A stretch of DNA of 64,000 bases. Source: Vermamoeba vermiformis. Taxonomy: Eukaryota. The notes under the pieces are model-generated. The model had not been told where the DNA came from, made no database searches, and saw nothing but the letters and a program-made list of their open reading frames with translations. The translations under genes and the position numbers were made by a program. This document shows, one piece after another, positions 1 to 27,777 of the stretch (positions are counted from its first letter, which is position 1; each line of letters opens with the position of its first letter). The stretch is taken from positions 434,001 through 498,000 of the forward strand of contig JBEWZL010000202.1 in NCBI GenBank assembly GCA_045837725.1. Direction: 5' to 3'.

Positions 1-400
1 TCTGCTTGCTGCTCCGTTCTTCTGTAATTAAATCTTCAAAAATAATGCAAATTAGATATGTGCCCACTAACAATCACGTTGGGTCACGTGTGCTCGCTGC
101 AGTGTTTGGATAAAAAATAATTGCTGTAATTGAATCAGGTTAAAACCCAACACTGAACAACGACCTGGCTTAGTCTATCAAATTAAAACTATTAGCCAAT
201 ATATAAAGGTAATGCCGCTAGTGCTACATTGGGATTTGGTCGATTTTTTTTTGGTCTTCGAAGTTACAGTAATTCAATTTAATAATTATCGTTACTCTCA
301 TTTACGCGATTGTGAATAAATAACAAATAATAATATGTGCAGAACCGAAATTGAAAATTAATTATTTACTTTCATTTCAGAGTTAGAAGCTACAGCCGCC

Positions 401-1721
401 ATGTATCGTAAGAAGCCGTATTCAATATTCTTTTATTAATAATCTAACGAACTATGATAGAAAAACAATTCAACCCTCATGCCGTGGTGGACGCTCAAAA
501 TGGTATCCCACCGGAAGACACCGAACGCAAAGCCAGGGAGGAGGGGGCCAAGGCGGAGAGAGGAGGCACAACACGGGGCCCGAGCGGCGCGGGGGGCGGA
601 GGGGAGAGGGGGAGGGGCGCCCACCCCCCTACAAACGCCGCCTCCACCAGCCCCCCCCTCCCCCCCCCAACCCGGGCAAACCCACGCGCCCGCGCGCCCC
701 CCCCAAGACCCGCGACGCGCCCCCCCCCCCCCCCCCCAACCCAACCCCCCGCAACACCACAGAGAGACCCACCACAGAACACATAAAAAAGCAAAAGCCA
801 CCCAGACACCCCACCCGGCCCCCCCAAAAAGAGCAAAAGGCAAGAGCCCAGAGCACCACCAACCCCCCACCAGAAGGAAAAAGAAAAAAAGCGAAAAGAG
901 CAGCACACGAAAAGCAAGCCAGAAAGCGAAGACCCCCAAAAAAGCGAGGACCCCAAGCGCAAGAAAGAAAAGAACCACCAACAGAAGACCAAAAAAAGGA
1001 ACCAAAAACAGGCAAGGCAAGCCAGGGGCGGGGGGGGACCGGCACAGCAAATCCACGAAAAAAGGAACACCCACTAACAGAGTAGTTATAACCCAGACCT
1101 CCGGCTCCACTTGTTCCAAACCATCTGGACAGTACCCACGATCTTGCTAGAGAAACTCCCCCCCTCCCCCCCGAAGAAAAACAACAACCGGACCACTTAG
1201 CATAGATAAAAAATAAAAAAGAAAACCCCCCCACCCCCCAACCAAACGCAGTTACACCCAGATCACCGGCAAGACTCAAGAAACGCCAGAAAAAGACACT
1301 ACAAGAAAAGAGCTGGGCCAGCCCAGACCGCGGTCAGGCGACAAGCGGCCCCCAGAGAGCCCCTCAAGACCCCCCCAACCCACAAGAAGCGCTGCAGAGC
1401 CCCGCAAGACCCAACAAAAACAAGCTCCACCGCACCCCCCACGCAGAACACTGTTGGAGAAGACCCCGAACTCACTACACAAAGAACCTAAGAAAAACCA
1501 GAAGCACAACAACCGAAGAAACAACAGCCCCCAGCTCTCCAAAAGCACCACACTCAAAAAACAGAACCACCTAGAGCACCCCCCCCAGACCCCCCCAAAG
1601 AACCCGACCTATCTCAAACAAAGAAAAACAAAGAGAAGACTCACCCCCCCCAACCCCCCCCCCCTCCCCAACTACCACAACCACCAAGAACCCCAAAACC
1701 CCCCCCCCCCCCCACCCCCCG

Positions 1722-1755
<34 letters not shown>

Positions 1756-4700
1756 AACCCCCCACACCCCCCCCCCCCAACAAACCAAGCCCCCACCCTA
1801 GCTCCTCAACGACCACCCCACCTCCAGCCCCCCTCACCCCCGCGCGGCGACCCCCATCTGAGACCCCCCCAAGGCCCCCAACCCATACCTCCCCCAACAC
1901 CCCACCGCCCCACAAGACGACAACAAAAACCGCCCCCCCAAGACCCCTGCTCCCCAAAAGCGCTCAAAACCCAAAAACAACCCCAAACCATGCGACGACA
2001 CCCAAGAAAAACAAAAAGAAAACCCCAGCACCAAAAGCACCCCCAACTCAGACCCACACCCACTCTACCCCCCTCCCCCTCCCCACCACACAACAACTGT
2101 ATATGCAACAGACAGCACACCAAAAACAGCTCACCCCCCCCTCCCAACCCACCAGCAGCAGGCGAGGACAAGACCCAAGGATCTCACTGCCGACAAGTAA
2201 GCGCATCCAGCGCCCCCCCCCCCCCCATCCCACCTGAACTCCACAAAAAAACCCCCCCCACCCCCATACCCAGACCACACCGAGGCTCCCAGAGCTGGAC
2301 AAAGCCGCGGAGAGAAGACGACATCCCTCAACCCCCCCCCACCGAGAGCGCAGGAAAAACAGCAACCTACCAACCTGCGCAGCCGCAGCACACCCGAACG
2401 CCCCCAGCAACCCAACGCTCAAGCCCAGGACGCAAACCCAAAAAAGCAAGAACAGGAAGGAACCAGACCCCCCCCGAGAAATAGCAACCCCCCCCCCCCC
2501 TCTCCACAAAAGTGCAATAAACAAAACACCCAAATCCACCCCCAACCCCCCCTCCCACAAACCACAACCCACAACAAACCCCAACCCTGACCCCACCCCC
2601 CCGCCCATCTGCACACACTCCCCCCCCATCCCCCACCAACGAAGACGCGGCCCCCCCCCCCCCCACCCCCACTCAGAAACGACCTCCCCACTACCCGGAG
2701 GCCCCCGCGAACCCCAGCCCCGACGACGCAAGCACGACGCCCCCCCCCCCCCGCCGACACCGCGGAGCCCGCGCCCCCACACGGCCCCCCCACGCCCCCC
2801 GCACCCAAACCCCCCCCCCAACCCCACCCCCCGCCACCCCCCCCCCACCCCCCCCCCCCCACCCCCCATCCGCCTCACCTACACAATACTCACTAAATCC
2901 TCCACCAACAAGTCTCTCACAACTCTGACCCCGCCAGCAGCTCCAGCAGCACACCCCCCCACACGAAGCAGACTACAACCAGCACCCAGCCCCCCCCTCA
3001 CCCCCCACAGCAGAAACACCCCACCAACCAACAAGAAGAAAAACCCCAACAGCCCACCCCCAAGCAGCCCCGAACGCACCAACAGACGAGCACCAGCAAA
3101 ACCGGGGCCCAGGAAAACCCAGCAGAGAAGAACAGCAACCAAGCAGGCGACACCAAGCACAGCAAACGAACGGCTGTGGAGAACCAATATAACATGACTC
3201 AAATTTGACAAGCTTGGTATGGTATGTAAATTTGAGTTTAATCTGGTGACACTGGAACTTACAGCTATCCTACACTCTGTGGATGCTAAAGGTCGTTTAA
3301 CTGCAGCTAGTTCTAATACTCCAGTTACTTCTTTGAGTCTGATGGTAATGTTACTACAAGTGAGTAATGGATTGTGCTGGCTTTAAGCAACACTGGAGTT
3401 ACAGCTGGTAATTATTCAACTGCTAACATAAAGTGGATGCAAAGTGTATCATAGCATAAGTAATGGACTCTACATTCCCTATTTATACATTAAGTACTAA
3501 TACAGGTAAATTTGTAACAGTAAATCAAACAGGTGATACTAATGAGAGATGGGCTACAGATGTAATGGAATAAATATTTGGTCCTGAACTCTCCTGGAAC
3601 ATTTCCTGAGAGGAGCTTAGGATTGTTGGTGCTAGTAATAATTCTAATGGAAATTGAAGTAAGAATGAGATGCTTATTTAATCCAGGTTATGGAACTAAT
3701 GTAATGTAGCTAGTGGTAGTGGATTTGATTAATTGATGGAAATGAGTAGAGATAGGTATTTTAGTAGAGGATCTCTAGTGATGAAAATGATGGATAGTTA
3801 GTTGGAGTGGGTGGGTGGGAGCTAGAGGGGGGATGATAGGGTTATTGGGGTAGTAGTTAGTGATGGCAGTTGTTGATAGAAGAGGATTAGCTTGTGTATA
3901 GAAGGGGAGAATAGAAATAAGAGTTGCAGTAAATGGGGTGGTTTTATTGGATTAGAGTTTAGTCTGATATATTAAACGGAGAAAATTATATAGGAGTATG
4001 GAGTGCGTTGGATGGGGTATAAATAATTTTAGATATATAGTAAGGAAATGAGCTAATAGAAAATTGTTAGGTATAAGGTGAATCAAAAGTTTGTTTTTTG
4101 TGATGATGGAATGGATTGTATAGGGAGTGTGATTTTCTGAGAGGTTATTTAGGAGAGGAGGGGTAATGGCGGGAGGGCTTGAATGAGTGATGGTAGTTTA
4201 AAGGTGAGGATAATTGCGGAGAGAGAAGTGCTAAGTATAGATGGGTGGCTTATAAGAGAGGAGCGAAAGTGTGGAGAGAATGTTCTGGGGATTTGGGGTG
4301 TCTATAGAATGCGATTGAGAGAGGTAGCAGGTAGATGATGAGTAAAATGGATTGGAGGAGTAATGGTATCTAGTGCTAGGCTCTGGATAGAGAGGAGAGA
4401 GATGAAGTTTATGTGTAGGTGGTTTGTTGGGCTAGTTATGAGCTGGTTGCGTACTATTGTAAATGTTGTGTGCGGCTGTGGGCGTGCTGATTGTAGCTGA
4501 GAAGCGGCGAGGAAGGTCTGAATATAGGTTGGACGGAACTAAATGGCATCTGGAAAGAAAATCGACAACGATTTTTATCTTCATTCTCAGACGACCAAGC
4601 ATTAATTTATCTCGAAGGACGAGGCGAAGAATTTCGTAATGCTGATGTCGAGCATTATTTCAGACAAGACTCTTCATTTCAGTAAGGCAGATCTGATCTC

Positions 4701-7023
4701 ACTACTTTCTCAACTTGCTCATTGCTTATACTTCTATACTAAGGTACCTATGTGGTGCGGATTATCTAGGGGCATCGCTTATTATCGATTTAGAGAATGG
4801 CAAGACAACTCTGTATATTCCTAAGCCTGACGAGCATCACGGAATATGGCACAACGCGATTCAATCCAATGACACTTTAAAGGCTAAATACGACGTAGAT
4901 GACGTGTAAGAAGTACAATATTACTATAATAGAGAAGGGTAGTATACCTAATGATTCTATAGTAAGTACACTAGCGATCTCACAGAAGAGTTGCGAAAGT
5001 TACGAGCCAATCACGTGCGGATCTACTTGCTGAACGAGAAAGTTAAACTGCCGAACAACAACGCGAACAAGTACGAGCTAGACACTACGACAGTCGAGCA
5101 GTATGTGTATCTCAACGTCCATTCATTTTTTAATTGGTTTGAAGAGCACTCAAAGACGCCCGTACAGTGAAGTCTGACAAGGAGTTAGCGATGATGCAGT
5201 ACGCAGCTGATGTGAGCAGTGAGGCCCATATTACATTGATGAAGCAATGCCGACCAGGGCTCTACGAGTATCAACTCGAGAGTGTCTTCAATGGCTTGAC
5301 TTCGTTCTGGGGGTATGTTAATTCAGGCCACTTCCAGCACACCAAAATTTTTGACACGTGTCAAACATCTTACAGATTGCGCCACTCAGCTTATCCAGCG
5401 ATTGTCGGCTCAGGTCTTAATAGTGCTATTCTTCATTACTCAGCGAACAATAGACTCATTGGCGAGAACGATCTTGTGCTCGTGGATGCAGGTGGCGAGT
5501 TCCACTGTTACGCTAGCGATATTACACGTAAGTGTGCATTATCCTATAATATCAATTTCTTCGGTAGTGTTGGCGGGATTGAGCACCTTTTGACTTTTTG
5601 AGGACGTTGGTTCGGATTACGAGGGCACGTCAACAACGGCCGTTTAGCTCAGTTGGTTAGAGCATCGTGCTAATAACGCGAGGGTCCCAGGTTCGATCCC
5701 TGGAATGGCCACTCTTTTTTGTCCTTTCTCGCTACTTCCCTCCGTTCCCACGTTTTCCGCTCCTGGGACCTGAACTCGCTTAGCTGTCACACGTTATGAT
5801 GACGTTGCTTGCCTATACGAGGTATGACACACGAAACACTTGGACCGTGGCCAGTGACAAGTAGTGACCCGAACACGAAATCGCTTTCGGTCTCGGTCAA
5901 TATTAATATGGTTTGTCTTTTTGACGACCTCGTATGACTGGCGCCTTAAATTTCAACTACGGCGCCATAGCTTAGTGGTAGAGCCTCGGTCTCATGAGTC
6001 GATTGTCCAAGTTCGATTCTTGGTGACGCCTATTCTTTTTTTGGTTGTGCCGTCACGTCCCGGCTTGTGGAAGTAGTGACCCGAACAGGAAATCACTATC
6101 GGTCTCGGGCACGACCACACTAACAAGAATGCACCGCTTCCCGTCCGATCAGCGAAGTTAAGCTTGTTCAGGCCTTCTTAGTACTGGGGTAGGAGACTAC
6201 CTGGGAATCGGAGGTGTTGTGCTCTTTTCTTTTTTTGCTTTTGTTCCTGTCCGTAATCACTTGGTTAATGTCCCTTCCTTGTGTGTTGTTCCAGCCTGTT
6301 TTTTTTGTTCCGAAGCCACAAAAAAAATTGATGGCTGGTTGATTGCCACATGTACTTTTACGGAGTTATAATTAACGCCAATTTGTTTAGGAACTTACCC
6401 AGCCAACGGCAAGTTCTCAGCTGATCAAAAACTGATCTACTCGATCGTGCTGGATGCGCAAAAGAAGGCCATTGCAGCGCTGCGACCAGGAGTTAGTTGG
6501 TCCAGTGTCGTCGACACAGCTCTTCATACACTACTTACTGGATTATTAGAACACGGGTTTGTGCAAGGCAAGATGGAAGATCTGATTGAGGATCGCGTGG
6601 CCTACGTGTTCATGCCACACGGTCTGGGACACTTGGCAGGTCTAGACGTGCACGACGCGAACATATTCCCCGACATATTAACTGCTGGCCAAGTGGTCAC
6701 GATTGAACCCGGCCTTTACTTCAACGAGACAGCAATCAATGAAGGACTTAACAAGGCTTCCACTAGCAAGTACTTGGTCAAGCCGAAGATTGACGCGTTC
6801 ATGTAAGTCTCACTTTGACACGTGTCAAATTCCATGTTTTATCCTCACTCGAATGCAATTGCAAATCTATCATCGTCGGAGGCTTCCACTAAACTCACTT
6901 ATAATTAGGTCCTTTGGTGGAGTGCGTATTGAAGATATTTTAGTGGTCACTGAAACCGGAAGCAGATCCCTCTCGAATGTGCCGAAAGAAATCGATGAGA
7001 TTGAAGCTCTCATGGCCAAATAA
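401..7023 (+). CDS. PEPD: Xaa-Pro dipeptidase/aminopeptidase P (prolidase, M24B), multi-exon; exon 2 interrupted by a ~4 kb insert
   Basis: Spliced translation gives MYQKQFNPHAVVDAQNGIPPE/IWKENRQRF...RNADVEHYFRQDSSFQYLCG (AMP_N-like). Catalytic motifs follow: LHY, DAGGE..YASDITRTYPANGKF, FMPHGLGHLAGLDVHD, TIEPGLYF, GGVRIEDILV. Confidence 0.9.
517..4547. other. Low-complexity, probably error-rich or chimeric insert (C/A-rich ~540-3170, AT-rich coding-like ~3190-3790, C-depleted ~3790-4530)
   Basis: Extreme strand-asymmetric composition, long C homopolymers and no coherent ORF or splice signals. The flanks rejoin in frame as prolidase IPPE|IWKENRQRF. Confidence 0.75.
3240..3720 (+). pseudogene. 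Frameshifted phage/virus tail-fibre-like coding fragment
   Basis: Reading across frameshifts gives GDTGTYSYPT..SVDAKGRLTAASSNT and LSNTGVTAGNYSTANI.VDAK. Both resemble the GVTAGxYxxxTVDAKGR tail-fibre repeat. Confidence 0.5.
5350..5365. repeat. Dispersed palindrome TTTGACACGTGTCAAA (12-bp core at 5352, 6816, 34542, 39644, 46660, 49670, 56957)
   Basis: Exact TGACACGTGTCA read at seven positions. Confidence 0.9.
5638..5711 (+). tRNA. tRNA-Ile(AAT), intronic
   Basis: Cloverleaf GGCCGTT...AATGGCCA with A box TAGCTCAGTTGG, anticodon loop CT-AAT-AA and T loop TTCGATC. A T-run terminator follows. Confidence 0.95.
5859..6108 (+). repeat. Direct repeat of a 38-nt element (5859-5896 and 6071-6108; 35/38 identical)
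   Basis: AAGTAGTGACCCGAACACGAAATCGCTTTCGGTCTCGG vs AAGTAGTGACCCGAACAGGAAATCACTATCGGTCTCGG. Confidence 0.9.
5961..6031 (+). tRNA. Atypical tRNA-Met(CAT)-like gene, intronic
   Basis: Cloverleaf with A and B boxes, anticodon loop CT-CAT-GA and T arm CCAAG/TTCGATT/CTTGG, followed by a T7 terminator. It has a C5:A68 mismatch and two G-U pairs in the anticodon stem. Confidence 0.7.
6107..6225 (+). rRNA. 5S rRNA, intronic
   Basis: About 119 nt with terminal helix GGGCAC/GTGCTC. It has the conserved eukaryotic 5S motifs GCACCG..TCCCGTCCGATC, GAAGTTAAGC, TTAGTACT and CTGGGAAT, then poly-T. Confidence 0.95.
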
Positions 7024-7250
7024 AGTTTTTTCTGATGTTAACTGCACATGAATGAGAGTATCGTAACTATAAATTAACTGCGGCCAATAAATTGTGGGCA
7101 CAGACGTACACAACGGCTCGAGCGCCTGTCCCCAAGAATTTCATTCATTGTTTGGCCAAAGTTCCAAAACCAAAAAGTAATCGAAGCTTTGGATCTAATA
7201 AATAATTGTTTATAGTTCTATTATGTACAAATATTTGGTAATATAAAACA

Positions 7251-10200
7251 TTAATGTGACTCCACGGGCATGTCATCGAGCTCGGCAATGACGTCATCAC
7301 CGACACCACCAGTGTTCGTGCCGTCTTGCAGAACAGTGCCAGAAGACTTGCCAGACTTGGTGCGCGATCGCATTGACGAGACCCAAGCTTTCTTCTTATC
7401 GGCACTTTGAGCGAACAACGAGGTCTTCTTGAACAAGAAGATGAAGATGATGGCAGGAGCAATCTCAACAATGTACAAGAAGATGAGCACACCGACAAAA
7501 CTGCGGTCAGAGCCCAATGAGCCGTGCAACAAGTTACCAGCTTGTGCTAGCAAACAAATAGCACAAACAGCCGAGACAATGACGAGCTGTAAAAGAATTG
7601 TTAGGTTCATGTTTGACAGGTGTCAAAAGTGTCAAAATACGTACTCTGATCAAGGCCTTGTTACGCTCAGAGTTACGGGTCCTTCCGGCCATCTTAGCGG
7701 TCTGGTGCATCATCTCAACGATACGACCTCCGTACACGCCAAATGTAATTGCCAAGCCCAAACAAATCAACGCGAAGATAACTTTGTACGCAATGGCTAC
7801 CTTCTCAGCGTCGGTCAGTTCTTGAGTGGCAGGCGTTGAGCAGTTGACGACACGATTGTTCGACAAGTTGTAGAACAGCGCGGCCAACACGATGAAAGCA
7901 GCGCCCAAGAACGCGTTCAAAGAAATGACGACAGGGCGCAACTTGTTGATACCCGTGATACGACCAGTGGTCATGGTGAAGTGATAGATTTCAGCCCTAG
8001 TCGCAGTTAGTCACCTTATAGGCATTATTATAATAGCTAGTCGTACCATCGAATAACAATCAGAGAATAGATCGTCAAATAGAGCAAGGCTGGAAGTTCT
8101 GAGAAGACTACATCCGCTTGACGAGCAGTTTCGAGCACACCGTTGCTCAAGAAGAACAAGTACAACAGACGAACTATATGATATTAGTATAAAGATAGGG
8201 TTACTGATGTGAGCACTTACGGATCAACATAAAGAACAAGATCGTGAGCGCGGATGTGGCCATGTTCCAGAATCCCTTGGCAGAGTCAGCTTGCATAATA
8301 TGGATGATAAAGTGGAAGGCAGTAAAGCCGAGCACGAAGACGTAAATGCCGACACCAATGTAGATCAACGCCAAGTTACCCTGGCTGATGGTCTCGATGA
8401 ACTTGATGTTCTCGTAGTTCTCGATCAAGACAATAGGGAACAAAATACCCTCAGTAGATTGCGACAAATCGAAGCAGTACTCGCTGTTGGGAGTTAATAA
8501 AGTAACCAAGAGGATCTGATCGAACTTACGTTGTGGTGAGTGGCAGTTTCAAGTCGAGCGGGGTAAGGAACGAGTAAGACTCATCAGGATAAGCAAAGTC
8601 TAAATAAGCGGCTGTGCCTAGCGTAGTGTTGGGCTGGAAAAAAGGTTGGTACAAGAACGAGCAAAAAGCAAAAAAGAAACTGGCCTAACTCGGATTCGAA
8701 CCGAGGACCTCCCGCTTACTAGGCGGGCGCAATAACCAACTATGCTATTAGGCCGTTGTTATCCGACTTTTTGGAAAAACGACATCCAGACGACATCGGT
8801 GCAACTTGTTACATACCGTGGGAAGAGGAATGCATGCGTACAATCCAGAGAGTGCGGTTACTGTCAGTTCCAACTTGACACCATCGCTAATCATCTCTCC
8901 AACAGCCGCAACGTTCTTGTTCTTGACATATCTAAATTGATCGCTGAGGCCTGATTGAGGCAATGACGCGGAGATGGAGCTGATAGTGATCTTTTTACGG
9001 GAGTTGAACTGTCTTCGAGGTAGCGAGTAGACCTTCAAATTGATGCAATCCACGTCGGAGTCGGTATTGAAATCAGACTGGCAATATGTTAGCAAAAGGT
9101 GCTCAGCGCGTCACAGAATTAACACTTACGTGAACCTCGATTCTCGTCTTGGTCGCTTGAGAGGTCGTGTTCTCAACGATAGATCTGCAACATTGAACAA
9201 CGGCATCGGTAATAACGCTATACATGTGTCAGAATGACGAACGTATCACAACGATAATGGAACGTACCTGATGTTGGCAACGCATGACTGCGACAGGTCC
9301 AACGTCTTGTCAGTACCGCAGTCACAAGCAATGTTCTCCAAGGCGTCTTGAGATCGACCGTAACGGCACAACACTTCACGAGCCATAATGTTAGCGAAAC
9401 GCTTCGCAATAGCAGCTCTCCAGAAGGTTCTGAACTTTGTGTTGTCAATTGCTGAGCCAAGCGAGTTTGCTTGGGCAAATGCTCTTGGTCGCCATTGTAG
9501 ATCAAACCAAGCGTTGCTGGTCCATTCAGCTCCGGTCCACGAGTAGTACGGCAAAATTTCACCGCCGCACTTGGTACACTCGCTCTCGTTCTTCGCCGAG
9601 TATCCGGGAGGAGGTCTGTTCGGCGCTGCGACAGATTGAGCTGTGGATGGATCGACGCAAGCGTAGCCTTTGTCGAGACATTCTGTTCTTGAAGCTGCTT
9701 TGTTGACCCATTGACCCCTGTTGAGATAGTTAGATTGTTGCCGAGACTAAGCGAGGCTATTTGACGACTTACCCTTGGGTGGAACAATCAGTGATTGTTA
9801 CGTTCGGAAGATAACAACCAACAGGACTCCATTCAGTTTTATCGGGACAGATATTACTGTCAGGCAGTGGTGTTACACAACCTTCAAAATCATCGCAAGT
9901 GCCTAGTGTGCATTAAGTTAACTATTCTATTTGTTTGGTTTGACGAGACTTACCAGCCGTGTCACATCCGGGTTCAGTTTCGCAAATTACGCTGTCGCAA
10001 CCATTGCAATAAGACGTGCTCAAACAAGTGGCCTCGTCGGTGATGTTCTCGTTAGGAATGCAAAGACCAGTGCATGCAAGCTCAGTTTCATATCGTGGTT
10101 CCATCCAATGAGTACCAGGCCTGAGCAAACAATAATTCAGTCTCGATCCCTTCTATTACATCATTATTACGTACCACCAACTTGTGCCGTTACGTAATTT

Positions 10201-13200
10201 GCCTGCAGAGTTTAACAAGCACTTTGCAATTGTCGTGAGATCTGAGGCAACACAAATGCCGTACGGTGTCGCGCCATGATTCCAAGTCACCCTACTAGAT
10301 GTTAGTTTCTGCCTAGATTAATGCACAAACAAACAACGTACCAATTAACTGTAGAGTTTTCAATAATGCCAACGCAATCAGTGTCAACGGTCACGTCCTT
10401 AATGTAACAATACGCGTGACAGTCGCCGTTCTAGTGTAGATGATAAAGGTCAGAAAGTAATTCAAAACCAAGGAATGACATCACTTACGGCTAATTCAGT
10501 GTCGGTACAACGGGTGGGTGGGAAACAATCATTGACGGTTTGAGTGGGACGAATGCATCGTTGGTTATCAGTAGGCAGACCAACGAACACTGCACCACCG
10601 GTCTCTGTGGAGTTGAAGAGGTTGCAAATCGATCCCGTGGCTCCGAATGTTCCCTTGTATTGACAACGAGGGAAAATGGACACTTCAGCGCACGTGTCAC
10701 CGTAGCAAAAGCCGCAAAAGTGATCGCTGCCGAGAGCATTATTTTGCGGCAAACAGTGTTCTGGAGGCAATGTGTTATTAACGCGATAAATGACAGTGGT
10801 AGACACTTACGTTCAGTGCAGAAAGTGTCAGTCAGACTGTCGCATTGACTCCAATTGCACGACTCGACTTGCTCGCAAAGTGTGGGAGAACTTCCGTAGT
10901 TGGAAGAAAGAGGGCCCAAGCACGACTGATTGTTGACCAATGTGTTCAAGAAGGTTGACACGTACGTTGATGGAGGGGCATTATCTGACATCAAGACATT
11001 AGTCTCCGGGTTATATAACCCAACAAGTAAGACTTACATGGCACACCGAGCTCACTTCTGATAAACAAAGCGACGTAGTTGTTCATGTTCTTCTCGATAC
11101 ACTAAATACATTTAATCAGCTATTTGCTCTTATGCACTCGTGCGGTAGTGCACTCACCTTGATCAAGTACGTAGTCTCCTCATCACCCACTTCGTCCAAT
11201 CTGCTGTATGTGACGCAAGTGTCGATGCCAGCAATTGTGGTGCAATTGTTGCTGACACATTCAGTATTGTTCTTGCAAGGCAGAGAGCAATAGCCGTTTG
11301 GCATGCAAAGCGAGTTAATATCGACATTTGTGCACATATCGCTAATTTAAACAACGTGAGTTAACCACCACTCCTTCCACTATCTTATAATGACTTACTT
11401 TGCAGAGCAAGGCTGTGAAAACACTTGCAATTGACAGGTTTGCAATGGCGTCTGTGTATTATTGAACAGAGGATTGTTCAACGCCTTTTGGGTTTCCAAA
11501 GAACAAACATCACGACGGATCAATGCACCCTCGGACAGATTGATATATTGATCCAAAGCATTCTAGCGCACTGTTAGGATCGGTATGTGACTTGATATTA
11601 GTGTACTTACAGTCGTACAAGCAGGCAAGTTGCAAGTTTTGTTGACCGTATCGAAGTTGATCTGGTATGCTGGAGCATTGACAATAACGTCACGAGGAGC
11701 ACAACATTGAGTAGGTTGCAATCTAGGCAAAGAAGATGAGACTTACTATACATATATGGTAAATTAATAGTTGAAGCTTACGAGGGGTTGCAGCACGGAT
11801 CGGTCAAATAGGCCTCACTAGTTGGATCTGTCACGAAACAACTTGCAGTGCTGTTAACAGTTGTGGGCACGCTAGTAGCAGACAACAATGAATTTTCAGT
11901 CAAGCGGACACATCCGAGCCAATCATTGCTGACCGCGTAGGCCAAGGACTAGAAATTTCATCGTTAATAAAATTGATAAAATATTCTCTGAAAGATACTC
12001 ACGCGTAGACGATATTCATAGACGTCATCTTCAGTTGCAAACGATGAACTTTGCAAGTCAGTCAACAACGTAGTAAGTCCTTCGCTGACATCAAAGAAGC
12101 CAGCTGCAGAGCACGTCAACTGGCGTTGCGTGAGTGATGCACTGCCAGTCAAATATTCGCCACCACTGTTTCTCAATGAGCCCGCAAATGATACTTGGCA
12201 CGTGGAGTCGCTGAGAATTGACGCTGAGAACGGGAAGATTGTTCGTGAGACCTAATCGATTTTGAAGTTAGCAAGACTAGTTCAACAAATGCACTTGTAT
12301 TAATCCTTCCTAAATATTTACATCGATTATGTATCTTATTATAAGGTTTAACTTACTTGAGCGCTAGTAAAAACTTGAACGGACGAAGCAAAAGTCCACG
12401 AAATTGTTTTAGAAACGTAATCCAATGACGCTTCCAGATCACTAAAATTAATTAGTATCACCATAATATTATCATTGGACTTATAGACGTACGTTAATGT
12501 GGCAACGAAACTGAACAACGGATCATTTGTTGGCGGCAAGTTTTGACAGTAATCATCGTCCAATACGCAATTTTGGAATATGAAACTTTGATTTGCGCAC
12601 GTTATTTGTGGGACCACTATTTTATAATTAGTAAACAGTCAATTACAGCCTTTTGTTATTTAATTTTACGGGAGAGATTCCCGACGAGATTTTGGGTGTA
12701 AACAGGATTATAATAAATAAGAAGTGCTTACTGTTGAACCATGCATCGGTAATGCTAATAGATTGTGCCGTGTCTAAAAATAAATAAAATCAATACCTTA
12801 AAAATCAAAATTAAAGAAATCAAAAAATATAAATGTATCACTAACACTACTAAATTTAAGACGATCATATATGACCAAAAATGAAATGAATATTAAATAA
12901 TTTTTGTAACAGTTAAAAATTTGATCGTTAAGTAAATTCCGTTATGACTTTTTCTTACCTCGAACTTCGACTTCGAAAGTGGTTGTAGCATATGCGATTA
13001 CTGAAAAATATACTGTTCCATCCCATGAAGGATTCTTCGTGCGGATTGCAGAGCAGCAAAGGACAACGCCGTCAGATCCGGTATTTTGATAATAATAATT
13101 GTTATTTGTTGACGTTGGGGTCTTAATAGTCGATGAAACTGATACTGCAACATCGGGATCGCCGCTTAAGCTTCTAACAAAGATGGGAACGCTATCGCAA

Positions 13201-26181: not shown

Positions 26182-27700
26182 CTAAAAAGTACGGCGGATC
26201 CATTCGTCAACTTTCTGTGCCAATTCAATCTCTTTGCCAAAATAAAAGTGATCAATATCGTCAAAGACATAGAATTCTTTTGGGTTCGGAAATTTTGAAA
26301 TTCTGTCGTGGAACTTGGACACGCCCGTAAAGTTATCGTTCGAGCCGATCAGGAACAGTTTTGGCTTGGTTGTTTTGCCTTTATCGAGCAGGTATCCCAA
26401 TAGCATTATAGTAAGTGGCCCTGTGAATAAGAAAATATCAATATGAAATCTATTAGGCCTAATTCAAGTTCAAAAATTGTTCTCAAAATGAACCTTTTCC
26501 TTGGTTTTAAAAAAAGAGCAGATCCTTACAGAGGTCGAATCAGATAAATAATACGATTCTTAGCAATTTAAAAATAAAAAAAAGAGAGGGGGACCAATTA
26601 CGGCCTGTTGTACAATGCACGTCTGATCCGTTCGCAAGTCAAGTTCAAACCAGCAAGCCAATCTGACCTCAAACTCACGCCACGACCCTCTAAGAATAAA
26701 TTGTTCAATCTTCGATGCACAGCGCGGTGGCTGGCAGGCTTAGAGATTAAACTAAGCAGAACAGATACTACACTTCGATCGGAGCCAAGGCTCGGAGAAG
26801 GTACTTCTAAGTTGTCTGCTTAGGCTTCATATAGCTACGTTTGAATTATGAGGGATAATTTACGGGACCAAAGTAAAATTTTTGGTCAAGAAAGGTGTTA
26901 GAAGTTGCGGATGTACTTCTCTAAGAATTCGCGAAGTGCACTTACCAAAAGGATAACTGATCGAGGCATAACCAATGACTTGTTCAATATCATCGGCCAC
27001 TGAACTGGCTATAGCACTGCCGTACGAGTAACCAACAAGCAGAATTCTTTTGATCGCGTGATCTGTTTGGCCGAGTAAGTATTTGCAAATCTAAAGAATA
27101 TTAATATGAGTATAATACAACATGTATTATCAATATTACTCGAAGCAATTACTTACGCTACGCACGTCATCGCGTTCTTTTCCTCCTCTCCAAGATCCTT
27201 TTCCTAAATAAACTAAATTAGTACAAATATTACAAATAATTACTATAGAGGACAAAGTATATTAGGCATATTGAATTGAGATTGTAGAATCACAAATATT
27301 CAATAGCGAATTGAATTTAGGCAAATTTGAATAACAACAAATTTTCCTCACCAAATATCACCGAGAATAATACGAACAATAATTGTATTAGGCAGTATTT
27401 AAATTTGGACGTATTTAGAATACCTTTAGAGTTTCCTACGCCTCGGAAATTGAATCTAATGCAGGTACAGCCCAAGTTTCGGCTTAAATACTGACATAGT
27501 GCCACCACTACGTTGTTTTCCATATCTCCACCAAGCATTGGCATCGGATGCGTTATAACAATCCCGAGATCATCAAATACTGTTGGGACTCGATCAGCGG
27601 GCAGTGTTGTAATTCTAGCTTCGAGTTCGTCTTTGGAATCATTTACAGGCACGAATATCTTGTTTTCGTGATATTTAGTGTTATTATTGTTGCGTTCCAT
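26182..27700 (-). CDS. Alpha/beta hydrolase
   Basis: THPMPMLGGDMENNVV, RFNFRGVGNS, nucleophile elbow GYSYG, GSNDNF and DHFY; 4 exons. Confidence 0.88.
26599..26805 (-). ncRNA. U2: U2 spliceosomal snRNA (divergent), inside hydrolase intron 26421-26945
   Basis: Minus strand GTACCTTCTCCGAGCCTTGGCTCCGATCGAAGTGTAGTATCTGTTCTGCTTAGTTTAATCTCTAAGC... contains the branch-pairing GTGTAGTATCTGTTCT. It also has stem IIa GCTTAG/CTAAGC, stem IIb, IIc complement AGATTGAA, stem III loop GCTTGC and loop IV ATTGTAC. Confidence 0.9.
26860..26867 (-). promoter_or_regulatory. DUSE-like snRNA upstream element TCCCGTAA about 63 nt upstream of U2
   Basis: One mismatch from the Dictyostelium upstream sequence element WCCCAYAA, at the same distance from the RNA start. 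Confidence 0.55.
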
Positions 27701-27777
27701 CGTGTCAGATCAAAATAATTTAAAAAAAGGAAATCAAATTTATTCTGCATCCAACACAGAACGTTAATACAATAATA

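Follow-up and report, generated by a model that had tools for sequence, protein, structure and literature searches.

An intron-nested U2 snRNA gene whose unusual features appear to reflect lineage divergence

The window (the whole 64-kb stretch of DNA that was analysed, with a GC content of ∼41%) contains a U2 snRNA gene that lies, together with its putative promoter, wholly inside an intron of a host gene of the same orientation (Table 1). The nesting had been claimed in the first-pass annotation, an earlier reading of the DNA, and it holds: a spliced contig from the RNA run X6 skips the 525 nt of the intron. The host would be an alpha/beta-hydrolase-like gene, a call whose sole basis is the GYSYG-type motif contained in its exon ORFs; Pfam gave no family for the three exon ORFs. 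A protein atlas yielded no informative taxa, and the named homologues returned by protein searches are all distant, the best being in Capsaspora (66%), Balamuthia (65%), chytrids (64%) and Cavenderia (48%). Animals also have independent snRNA genes nested in the introns of protein-coding genes. The present locus resembles these in that a small RNA gene, here with a putative promoter of its own, lies in a host intron, but the host gene and the lineage are unrelated.

The gene matches the whole of the Rfam U2 model RF00004 (positions 1–192) with 56.2 bits (E value 1.9e-8), above the gathering threshold of 46, compared with 117–184 bits for 12 full-length environmental U2s in a comparison panel. 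With the cutoff relaxed to E ≤ 1, the window still gave no other snRNA. The U2 had earlier been assigned to 26599–26867; a U2 is indeed present there, but this span falls 15 nt short of the RNA's 3' end and, on the other side, reaches as far as the upstream motif.

Table 1. Positions of the U2 gene, its elements and its surroundings in the window, with the basis of each assignment
Feature	Position	Strand	Basis or remark
Host-gene intron, 525 nt, GT..AG	26421–26945	minus	X6 spliced contig joins 26419/20 to 26945/6
USE/DUSE/PSE-like TCCCGTAA	26867–26860 (−65 to −58 from A26802)	minus	Sequence
TATA-like TATAT	26833–26829 (−31 to −27)	minus	Sequence
U2 snRNA gene, 219 nt	26802–26584 (RNA 5' end ∼26802, 3' end ∼26584)	minus	Rfam RF00004
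Stem-loop I	26795–26777	minus	Sequence, centroid fold, Rfam alignment; contains GCU, CC bulge, GAUC
GCU, U6-pairing (helix Ib)	26785–26783	minus	Read from sequence; equals consensus
CC bulge, between GCU and GAUC	26782–26781	minus	Sequence
GAUC, U6-pairing (helix Ia)	26780–26777	minus	Sequence; equals consensus
GAA spacer	26776–26774	minus	Sequence
Branch-point recognition sequence GUGUAGUA	26773–26766	minus	Sequence
Stem-loop IIa: GCUUAG (26757–26752), 8-nt loop, CUAAGC (26743–26738)	26757–26738	minus	Sequence; MFE and centroid folds
Stem-loop IIb	26735–26717	minus	Centroid fold; Rfam alignment, low posterior
IIc partner AGAUUGAAC	26711–26703	minus	Complementary to IIa loop/strand GUUUAAUCU (26752–26744)
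Sm-site position, non-canonical AAUUUAUUCUUAG	26702–26690	minus	Aligned to the model's AUUUUUGG region
Stem-loop III, elongated (∼20 bp, CUUG loop)	∼26679–26632	minus	MFE fold
Stem-loop IV, loop CAUUGUACAAC	26629–26591	minus	Rfam alignment, high posterior
T8, A, T5 run directly 3' of last U2 base	26583–26570	minus	Sequence

The first-pass annotation described a U2 with an intact branch-pairing sequence, and this is borne out: GUGUAGUA, GCU and GAUC are all present in a gene that scores above the Rfam gathering threshold, GUGUAGUAUCUGUUCU (which contains GUAGUA) at 26773–26758 is identical to the RF00004 consensus and the stretch that follows the branch-pairing box equals the consensus as well. 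Stem I has been rewritten, as proposed; it is made up of a C8–G23 pair, a C·C mismatch, GAGC/GCUC and a CUUG loop. The bulge is CC, not AA or TA, again as had been stated. Canonical U2 (RF00004) has AA, UU or UA here, and CC is the dinucleotide before GATC in none of the 124 panel U2s listed. A scan of metagenome contigs with a 3-nt-spacer pattern gave at least 124 loci; the spacer is AAA in 119 of the 124 listed. One part of the earlier description needs qualifying: the nucleotide called extra before GUGUAGUA is extra relative to the Rfam consensus, but a 3-nt spacer is common in environmental U2s, as the size of this set shows. No close relative of the window's U2 is among the 124 metagenome matches listed, and a window-specific 25-mer had no match in viral_contigs or in genome_contigs (prokaryotes only). 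The literature on the role of the helix-I bulge yielded nothing usable, and a review of the Entamoeba spliceosome contributed no specifics. What does set the gene apart is the CC bulge, the non-canonical Sm site and the T8 run directly 3' of the gene.

In stem IIa (GCTTAG/CTAAGC) all six pairs are formed, three of them with both partners different from those of the commonest pair, so that the description of this stem as fully compensated stands. The IIc pairing is kept, as had also been claimed: the duplex has 9 bp and an energy of −9.7 kcal/mol, and none of 500 shuffles was equally good. Unrelated environmental U2s also show compensated IIa/IIc changes of a like kind. Among the changes seen in relatives in the IIc partner, one of three (26711) costs a terminal pair. 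The Sm region was correctly called non-canonical. A canonical Sm site reads purine-A-U4-6-G-purine, and AAUUUAUUCUUAG, which stands at the aligned position where the model has AUUUUUGG, does not have this form; the relatives have no difference listed within this position. Because two panel U2s (L084 and L103) are likewise without a canonical site, its absence does not disqualify the gene as a U2. The Sm site of trypanosomatid U2 is also non-canonical.

The gene has in common with canonical U2 (RF00004) a stem I, the IIa/IIc toggle, stem IIb and the 3' stem-loops III and IV. It differs in the C·C/CUUG stem I, in AAUUUAUUCUUAG for AUUUUUGG, in stem III, where an insert brings the length to 41 nt in place of the 17 nt of the model (in agreement with the earlier note of an elongated stem), and in loop IV, which reads AUUGUA versus the model's AUUGCA, a U2B''-type loop motif. 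Hairpins III and IV both fold; the fold of the whole molecule is no better than that of shuffles (z = −0.89).

The first-pass annotation had asked whether the RNA is expressed and conserved in relatives, and it is. X21 and X23 are raw-read RNA runs with the same species label, from a relative that is 5–10% diverged, in exons too. Over 26613–26783 the depth per orientation is 81–122 in X21 and 9–25 in X23, while the host exons reach at most 9.5 and 13.7, respectively, and the flanking intron bins 26442–26498 and 26841–26897 have depths of 0–0.4 (X21/X23). The depth in both runs is restricted to bins 26556–26840, with the reads on the U2 body (∼26600–26800), and in this 5–10% diverged relative the RNA is discrete, small, close to its predicted size and abundant. 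Fold-back joints of 26768/26771 with 26800–26803 fit an RNA 5' end at 26800–26803. X6 gave 151-nt contigs over the U2 with 0–2 differences, in addition to the spliced host mRNA contig; the expression evidence as a whole is that of diverged relatives and near-identical X6 contigs, not of the exact gene in its own strain. A 255-nt contig from a further organism (organism C, run X10) has eight base differences and one gap relative to the window.

All 12 fixed differences listed for X21/X23 inside the U2 lie at 26621–26715, and none is listed for 26727–26802 despite an X21 depth of ∼160-fold. At a threshold of 5% there are no well-supported alternative letters in the 5' half among the rows listed, and low-share variants may occur there among 59 further rows of other letters. 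The 5' half is thus unchanged at well-supported positions. Changes at paired positions in the relatives keep the pair in six of six cases (stem III, 5/5; stem IV, 1/1, a C–G to U–G change), and the U2 body is kept while its flanks diverge. Because the RNA reads in relatives are confined to the body and the 3'-half changes preserve the pairs of stems III and IV, the locus is a genuine U2 gene that is under selection and expressed. The low Rfam score, the non-canonical Sm site and the weak fold z-score are what a decaying U2-like pseudogene might show, but the core elements are all intact, IIa and IIc show compensation, the flanks diverge where the body does not, and in relatives the gene is both conserved and strongly expressed, with substitutions that keep the pairs. 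The pseudogene reading is close to refuted, and we give it next to no probability.

The likeliest reading is that this is a functional U2 gene and probably the main U2 type of its lineage, a protist one whose affinity is Amoebozoa/Opisthokonta-like, with odd features that appear to be lineage divergence and not the marks of a special variant. The first-pass annotation had favoured a U2 variant, possibly one that acts together with a co-varied U6, a proposal that the comparison does not support. The GAUC and GCU that pair with U6 are unchanged versus the consensus; since these bases and the region after the branch box equal the consensus, helix I requires no co-variation of U6. Furthermore, the expressed U2 of the X21/X23 relative, the X10 contig and apparently a second copy, whose divergence begins only beyond 26716, have the same derived versions of stem I, the bulge and IIa. 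Changes shared across the clade had been set down in advance as ordinary lineage divergence, and this is what a derived 5' half common to the relatives and the apparent second copy fits. The apparent second copy is seen as a loose end at 26716 (ten X21 reads), which represents a second transcript that shares the 5' half but continues differently on the 3' side; with the loose ends at 26671/26672, it points to more than one U2 form in the X21 organism.

This plurality of forms would suit a minor or specialised variant existing beside a major U2 of more canonical type, perhaps with a U6 to match, and so would the low Rfam score (56 bits versus 117–184 for typical U2s), a CC bulge with no counterpart among the 124 listed panel U2s and the non-canonical Sm site. 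Dictyostelium reportedly has developmentally regulated U2 variants, if the title of a 2006 report by Hinas et al. is followed. Such a variant is nevertheless unlikely here, as X21 and X23 contain this form (or an orthologue of it) in abundance, no 5'-half alternatives are supported at 5% among the listed rows, the second form has the same 5' half and the unchanged U6-pairing bases call for no dedicated U6.

As the main U2 of its lineage, the RNA would pair with intron branch sites via GUAGUA and with U6 via the unchanged GCU and GAUC, and it would toggle between the stem IIa and IIc pairings, while carrying a lineage-specific stem I, CC helix-I bulge, Sm site and stems III and IV. The main use of the result is in annotation: a U2 that is barely above the Rfam threshold can be real, expressed and conserved. 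It also documents where U2 tolerates change: in the helix-I bulge and upper stem I, at the Sm site, and in how long stem III is. The bases that pair with U6 and with the branch site do not vary.

Transcription of the U2 would most probably be driven by an external promoter of its own, composed of TCCCGTAA and TATAT. A TCCC-containing upstream element with a TATA at about −30 is what the locus has in common with the type-3 snRNA promoters of plants and ciliates; the plant USE is longer than TCCCGTAA. The motif had been placed at −63 and likened to a DUSE. It is present upstream of the U2, but it spans −65 to −58 and is not exactly at −63. As to the DUSE, the position fits the ∼60–63 nt upstream of the start given for this element (PMC7919456, PMC3188802), but the fifth base, G, fails the [AT]CCCA[AT]AA consensus reported for Dictyostelia (PMC3188802). 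The likeness to dictyostelid DUSE ncRNA genes is thus that of a C-rich 8-mer ending in AA at about this distance; their fifth base is A, and among the best named homologues the one from Cavenderia stands at 48%. We regard GGTCCCRYAAAT as a candidate SNAPc-type element of the lineage. TCCCRYAA was rejected as a window-enriched motif: it has nine matches in the 64 kb, where 6.96 are expected, and nine or more in 32 of 100 shuffles. Another GGTCCCACAAAT is found at 12615–12604, and a second gene behind it was rejected as well, with only a weak, sub-threshold C/D snoRNA-like match downstream (E = 1.4).

That the motif is not enriched (9 versus 6.96), and that the U2 has the orientation of its host and lies wholly inside a spliced intron, could also mean that the RNA is cut from the host intron in the manner of intronic snoRNAs, with no independent transcription. 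We consider this very improbable. The U2 of X21 is 10- to 100-fold above the host exons, and the motif and TATA stand at standard snRNA-promoter distances. An X6 contig keeps 126 of 135 bases over 26796–26930 and then diverges, and it may represent a second copy that has retained the upstream region. Nor is any Sm-class snRNA known to arise from a processed intron, the cap being acquired when transcription initiates, and this too speaks against it.

For U2, Pol II is the default polymerase; the T8 run, however, resembles the Pol III terminators of this genome. The run begins at the first base past the Rfam 3' end, and runs of at least eight T number only nine in 128 kb of strand (the window, both strands). 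The 5S gene and the three tRNA genes of the window all end in T6–T7 within 6 nt, a T-run stands at the end of only one of the 12 full-length panel U2s, and the 3' flanks in X6 and X23 differ from that of the window yet are T-rich right after the gene (loose ends 26579 and 26581). The promoter type would allow either enzyme: DUSE-type promoters are described as serving both Pol II and Pol III (PMC7919456), and so are the SNAPc-bound USE plus TATA type-3 promoters of plants and ciliates (PMC8287931). In Arabidopsis the USE–TATA spacing is given as 32–34 for Pol II and 23–24 for Pol III (PMC8287931); here it is 34 bp from start to start, within the Pol II range, or 26 nt from the end of the motif to the TATA, closer to that of Pol III, and it is thus ambiguous between the two classes, depending on how it is measured. 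The 3' part of the intron is, moreover, T-rich in general (further T5, T7 and T5 runs), so that the local chance of such a run is several percent, and some reads extend beyond the T-run, although these may be host pre-mRNA. To our knowledge U2 is made by Pol II in all eukaryotes studied other than kinetoplastids, which weighs against Pol III as well. A functional U2 gene transcribed by Pol III instead of Pol II, as in trypanosomatids, therefore seems doubtful to us, and we think it improbable that the principal U2 is both remodelled at its protein-binding sites (the Sm site, loop IV and the CC bulge) and made by Pol III from a USE/TATA type-3 promoter with termination at the T8. If true, no earlier case of a U2 made by Pol III would exist except in kinetoplastids, and the gene would lie inside an intron of a Pol II gene; were the terminator of Pol III type and the unusual Sm site functional, the locus would bear on the evolution of snRNA polymerase choice and of Sm-core assembly. 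In trypanosomatids all snRNAs are described as being made by Pol III (PMC4950102), and their U2 genes have in common with the present one a T-run directly after the gene. The trypanosomatid U2 needs tRNA-like upstream elements according to the same source (PMC4950102), whereas here the promoter is USE/TATA-like and the branch-pairing box does not depart at all from the canonical form.

A U2 snRNA gene (Rfam RF00004) was identified on the minus strand at 26802..26584 by a cmscan of the whole window, matching model positions 1–192 with 56.2 bits (E 1.9e-8). The score exceeds the gathering score of 46, which bears out the first-pass annotation of a U2 at this place; no further snRNA-like match was found in the window by cmscan, even at E<=1. 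The span originally given (26599–26867) covers the right object and reaches the putative promoter motif, but stops 15 nt short of the RNA's 3' end. The sequence features listed for this U2 are all present on the minus strand.

Features of the U2 gene and of the Pol III gene cluster (window positions; negative positions are counted from A26802)
Feature	Position	Strand	Basis or context
Putative promoter motif TCCCGTAA	-65 to -58	-	sequence
TATAT	-31 to -27	-	sequence
RNA 5' start, reads ACCUUCUCCGAGCCUUGGCUCCGAUCGAAGUGUAGUAUCUGUUCU		-	sequence
U6-pairing GCU	26785-26783	-	sequence
CC bulge	26782-26781	-	sequence
GAUC	26780-26777	-	sequence
GAA spacer, then GUGUAGUA	GUGUAGUA at 26773-26766	-	sequence
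Stem IIa, GCUUAG + CUAAGC	26757-26752 / 26743-26738	-	sequence
IIb hairpin	between IIa and AGAUUGAAC	-	sequence
AGAUUGAAC, IIc partner	26711-26703	-	sequence
AAUUUAUUCUUAG in place of expected Sm site	26702-26690	-	sequence
Stem III, long	about 26679-26632	-	sequence
Stem IV	about 26629-26591	-	sequence
tRNAs, two	5638-5711, 5961-6031	+	Pol III gene cluster
5S rRNA	6107-6225	+	Pol III gene cluster 5638-8754
tRNA, third	8681-8754	-	Pol III gene cluster

Minus-strand ORFs at 27709–27320, 27090–26863 and 26463–26185 resemble exons of a single host gene and bear a GYSYG nucleophile-elbow-like motif; Pfam recognised no family in the separate exons. A 407-nt contig from sequencing run X6 joins 27492–27423, 27090–26945 and 26419–26275; as it is spliced across the host exons, X6 is an RNA run. 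The 525-nt GT..AG intron that it skips (26421–26945, minus strand) wholly contains the U2 gene and 65 nt upstream, in the same orientation as the host, confirming the proposed nesting. The spliced X6 contig also defines a 45-nt micro-exon of the host gene at 27158–27202 (within 27091–27422), flanked by a 67-nt skip and a 220-nt intron; the ends of the skip read CT..CG on the plus strand with one extra contig letter, and are not a clean GT..AG.

Four runs were compared with the window at 80% likeness. X21 and X23 are raw RNA reads that share their species label with the best DNA match; their organism is a relative diverged by 5–10%, with most reads less than 95% alike and exon positions differing in all reads. 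Depth over 26613–26783 is 81–122 reads per orientation in X21 and 9–25 in X23, compared with at most 9.5 and 13.7, respectively, over the host exons, and 0–0.4 in the intron bins on either side (26442–26498 and 26841–26897). Depth confined to the U2 body with a near-empty flanking intron shows that the relative makes a discrete RNA close to the predicted size, in X21 far above the host mRNA in abundance. Fold-back ('opposite strands') joints connecting 26768/26771 with 26800–26803 were attributed to snap-back priming at stem I; on this reading the RNA begins at 26800–26803, in agreement with A26802. X6 has 151-nt contigs across U2 with 0–2 differences from the window; its contig across 26796–26930 has nine differences and then diverges. 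The U2 gene is expressed, as well as real and selected, and is probably independently transcribed.

X21/X23 differ from the window U2 at 12 or more positions, and minor variants are possible beyond those listed. The 12 fixed differences listed all lie within 26621–26715; none of them falls in 26727–26802, where the depth would rank any such difference high. Six are at paired positions of stems III and IV in the MFE fold, and pairing survives in every case (G-U to A-U and back, U-G to C-G, C-G to U-G). Three lie in the IIc partner: two preserve the pairing, and the change at 26711 costs the terminal pair. The claim of a selected U2 is borne out by this conserved 5' half and the pair-keeping changes: the RNA is under purifying selection. 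The run X10 (organism C) yields a 255-nt contig over 26571–26824 with eight differences and one gap. A loose end at 26716 (ten X21 reads) marks a second U2-like transcript that shares the 5' half and then continues differently, and 7–8 reads differ around other X21 loose ends at 26671/26672; together these reads suggest more than one expressed U2 gene copy in the relative, differing in their 3' halves. Relatives and at least one further copy share the 'divergent' 5' half. This, together with U6-pairing bases that match the RF00004 consensus, as do the branch-pairing bases, speaks against a special variant needing a co-varied U6; the data favour ordinary divergence of this lineage's main U2.

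Aligned with 12 full-length environmental U2s from metagenome contigs, stem IIa has 6/6 pairs in the window RNA, three of them altered on both sides of the stem relative to the commonest pair. The IIc alternative, a pairing between the IIa loop and the segment that follows IIb, has 9 bp (-9.7 kcal/mol), a duplex matched by none of 500 shuffles, and the unrelated environmental U2 L044 has the same AAUCU/AGAUU co-variation. The whole-molecule MFE does not beat that of shuffles (z -0.89), which is weak negative evidence; snRNAs folded on their own usually behave this way.

A scan of metagenome contigs for GATCNAA followed by the branch-pairing box gave at least 124 loci, so the extra nucleotide before the box, although present, is commonplace (spacer AAA in 119, GAA in four and CAA in one of the 124 listed). 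GATC is preceded by AA in 115 of these, by TT in five, by TA in two and by CT and AG in one each; CC occurs in none of the 124 listed, a panel that the search pattern biases. Compensated variation of stem IIa is seen in several panel lineages, and two panel U2s likewise have no canonical Sm site. The unusual features left are the CC bulge, the Sm-position sequence, the AUUGUA of loop IV and the long stem III. The 12 full-length panel U2s score 117–184 bits; the low score of the window U2 stems chiefly from its 3' half. Five environmental U2s of only ∼110 nt with a TT bulge seem to form a distinct lineage (L010, L015, L027, L097 and L007; spacer GAA in four, AAA in L007); the three scanned (L015, L007 and L010) score 60–64 bits and, their ends having been read, have a T7–T9 run directly 3' of the gene. 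On the L003 metagenome contig, U6 (683–789), U2 (234–425) and the beginning of a 5S rRNA gene (1–53) are tightly clustered on one strand within 800 bp.

Directly after the last U2 base stand T8, A and T5 (26583–26570, minus strand). Transcription by Pol III is a live but minority possibility: runs of T>=8 are rare (nine in 128 kb of strand), the 5S gene and all three tRNA genes of the window end alike, with a T6–T7 run within 6 nt, and only one of 12 full-length panel U2s ends in such a run, but the 3' part of the host intron is T-rich in general. Spacing of the motif and TATA does not decide the polymerase. According to PMC8287931, Arabidopsis USE–TATA spacing is 32–34 bp in Pol II genes and 23–24 bp in Pol III genes; the value here depends on how it is measured (34 bp between the two starts, 26 nt from the end of the motif to the start of the TATA).

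The DUSE is described as [AT]CCCA[AT]AA about 63 bp upstream (PMC3188802), and as an element ∼60 nt upstream that is conserved across Dictyostelia and serves genes of either polymerase, Pol II or Pol III (PMC7919456). The suggested DUSE-like promoter fits in position, but the fifth base of TCCCGTAA deviates from the consensus and the motif shows no enrichment across the window (nine matches versus 6.96 expected); with a single gene, its promoter role is putative. TCCC[AG][CT]A occurs in three of 109 distinct panel upstream regions (at -65, -59 and -56), a hint that the element at that distance extends beyond dictyostelids. At 12604–12615 (minus strand), GGTCCCACAAAT shares 10/12 bases with the motif before U2, GGTCCCGTAAAT, and a further TCCCGTAA lies 60 nt upstream (12666–12673). 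Some 120 nt downstream (12392–12482, minus strand) is a sub-threshold C/D-snoRNA-like match to snoR21 (22.3 bits, E 1.4) whose terminal stem is AAGUCC/GGACUU. Either chance or a second small-RNA gene driven by a promoter of this type could account for these matches.

The genes nearby are of ordinary eukaryotic types (RCL1, a 2OG oxygenase, a Kelch protein and an F-box protein). An RCL1 exon has 64–66% identity to Capsaspora, Balamuthia and chytrids, and a coronin-7-like fragment is 95% identical to a metagenome protein, the first named eukaryote being Cavenderia (48%). The GC content of the window is ∼41%. Positions 1–4000 have 53–54% GC, a GC skew of -0.3 to -0.37 and an AT skew of +0.3 to +0.5, with long overlapping plus-strand open frames rich in proline runs; these frames and the strong strand asymmetry indicate low-complexity A+C-rich sequence.
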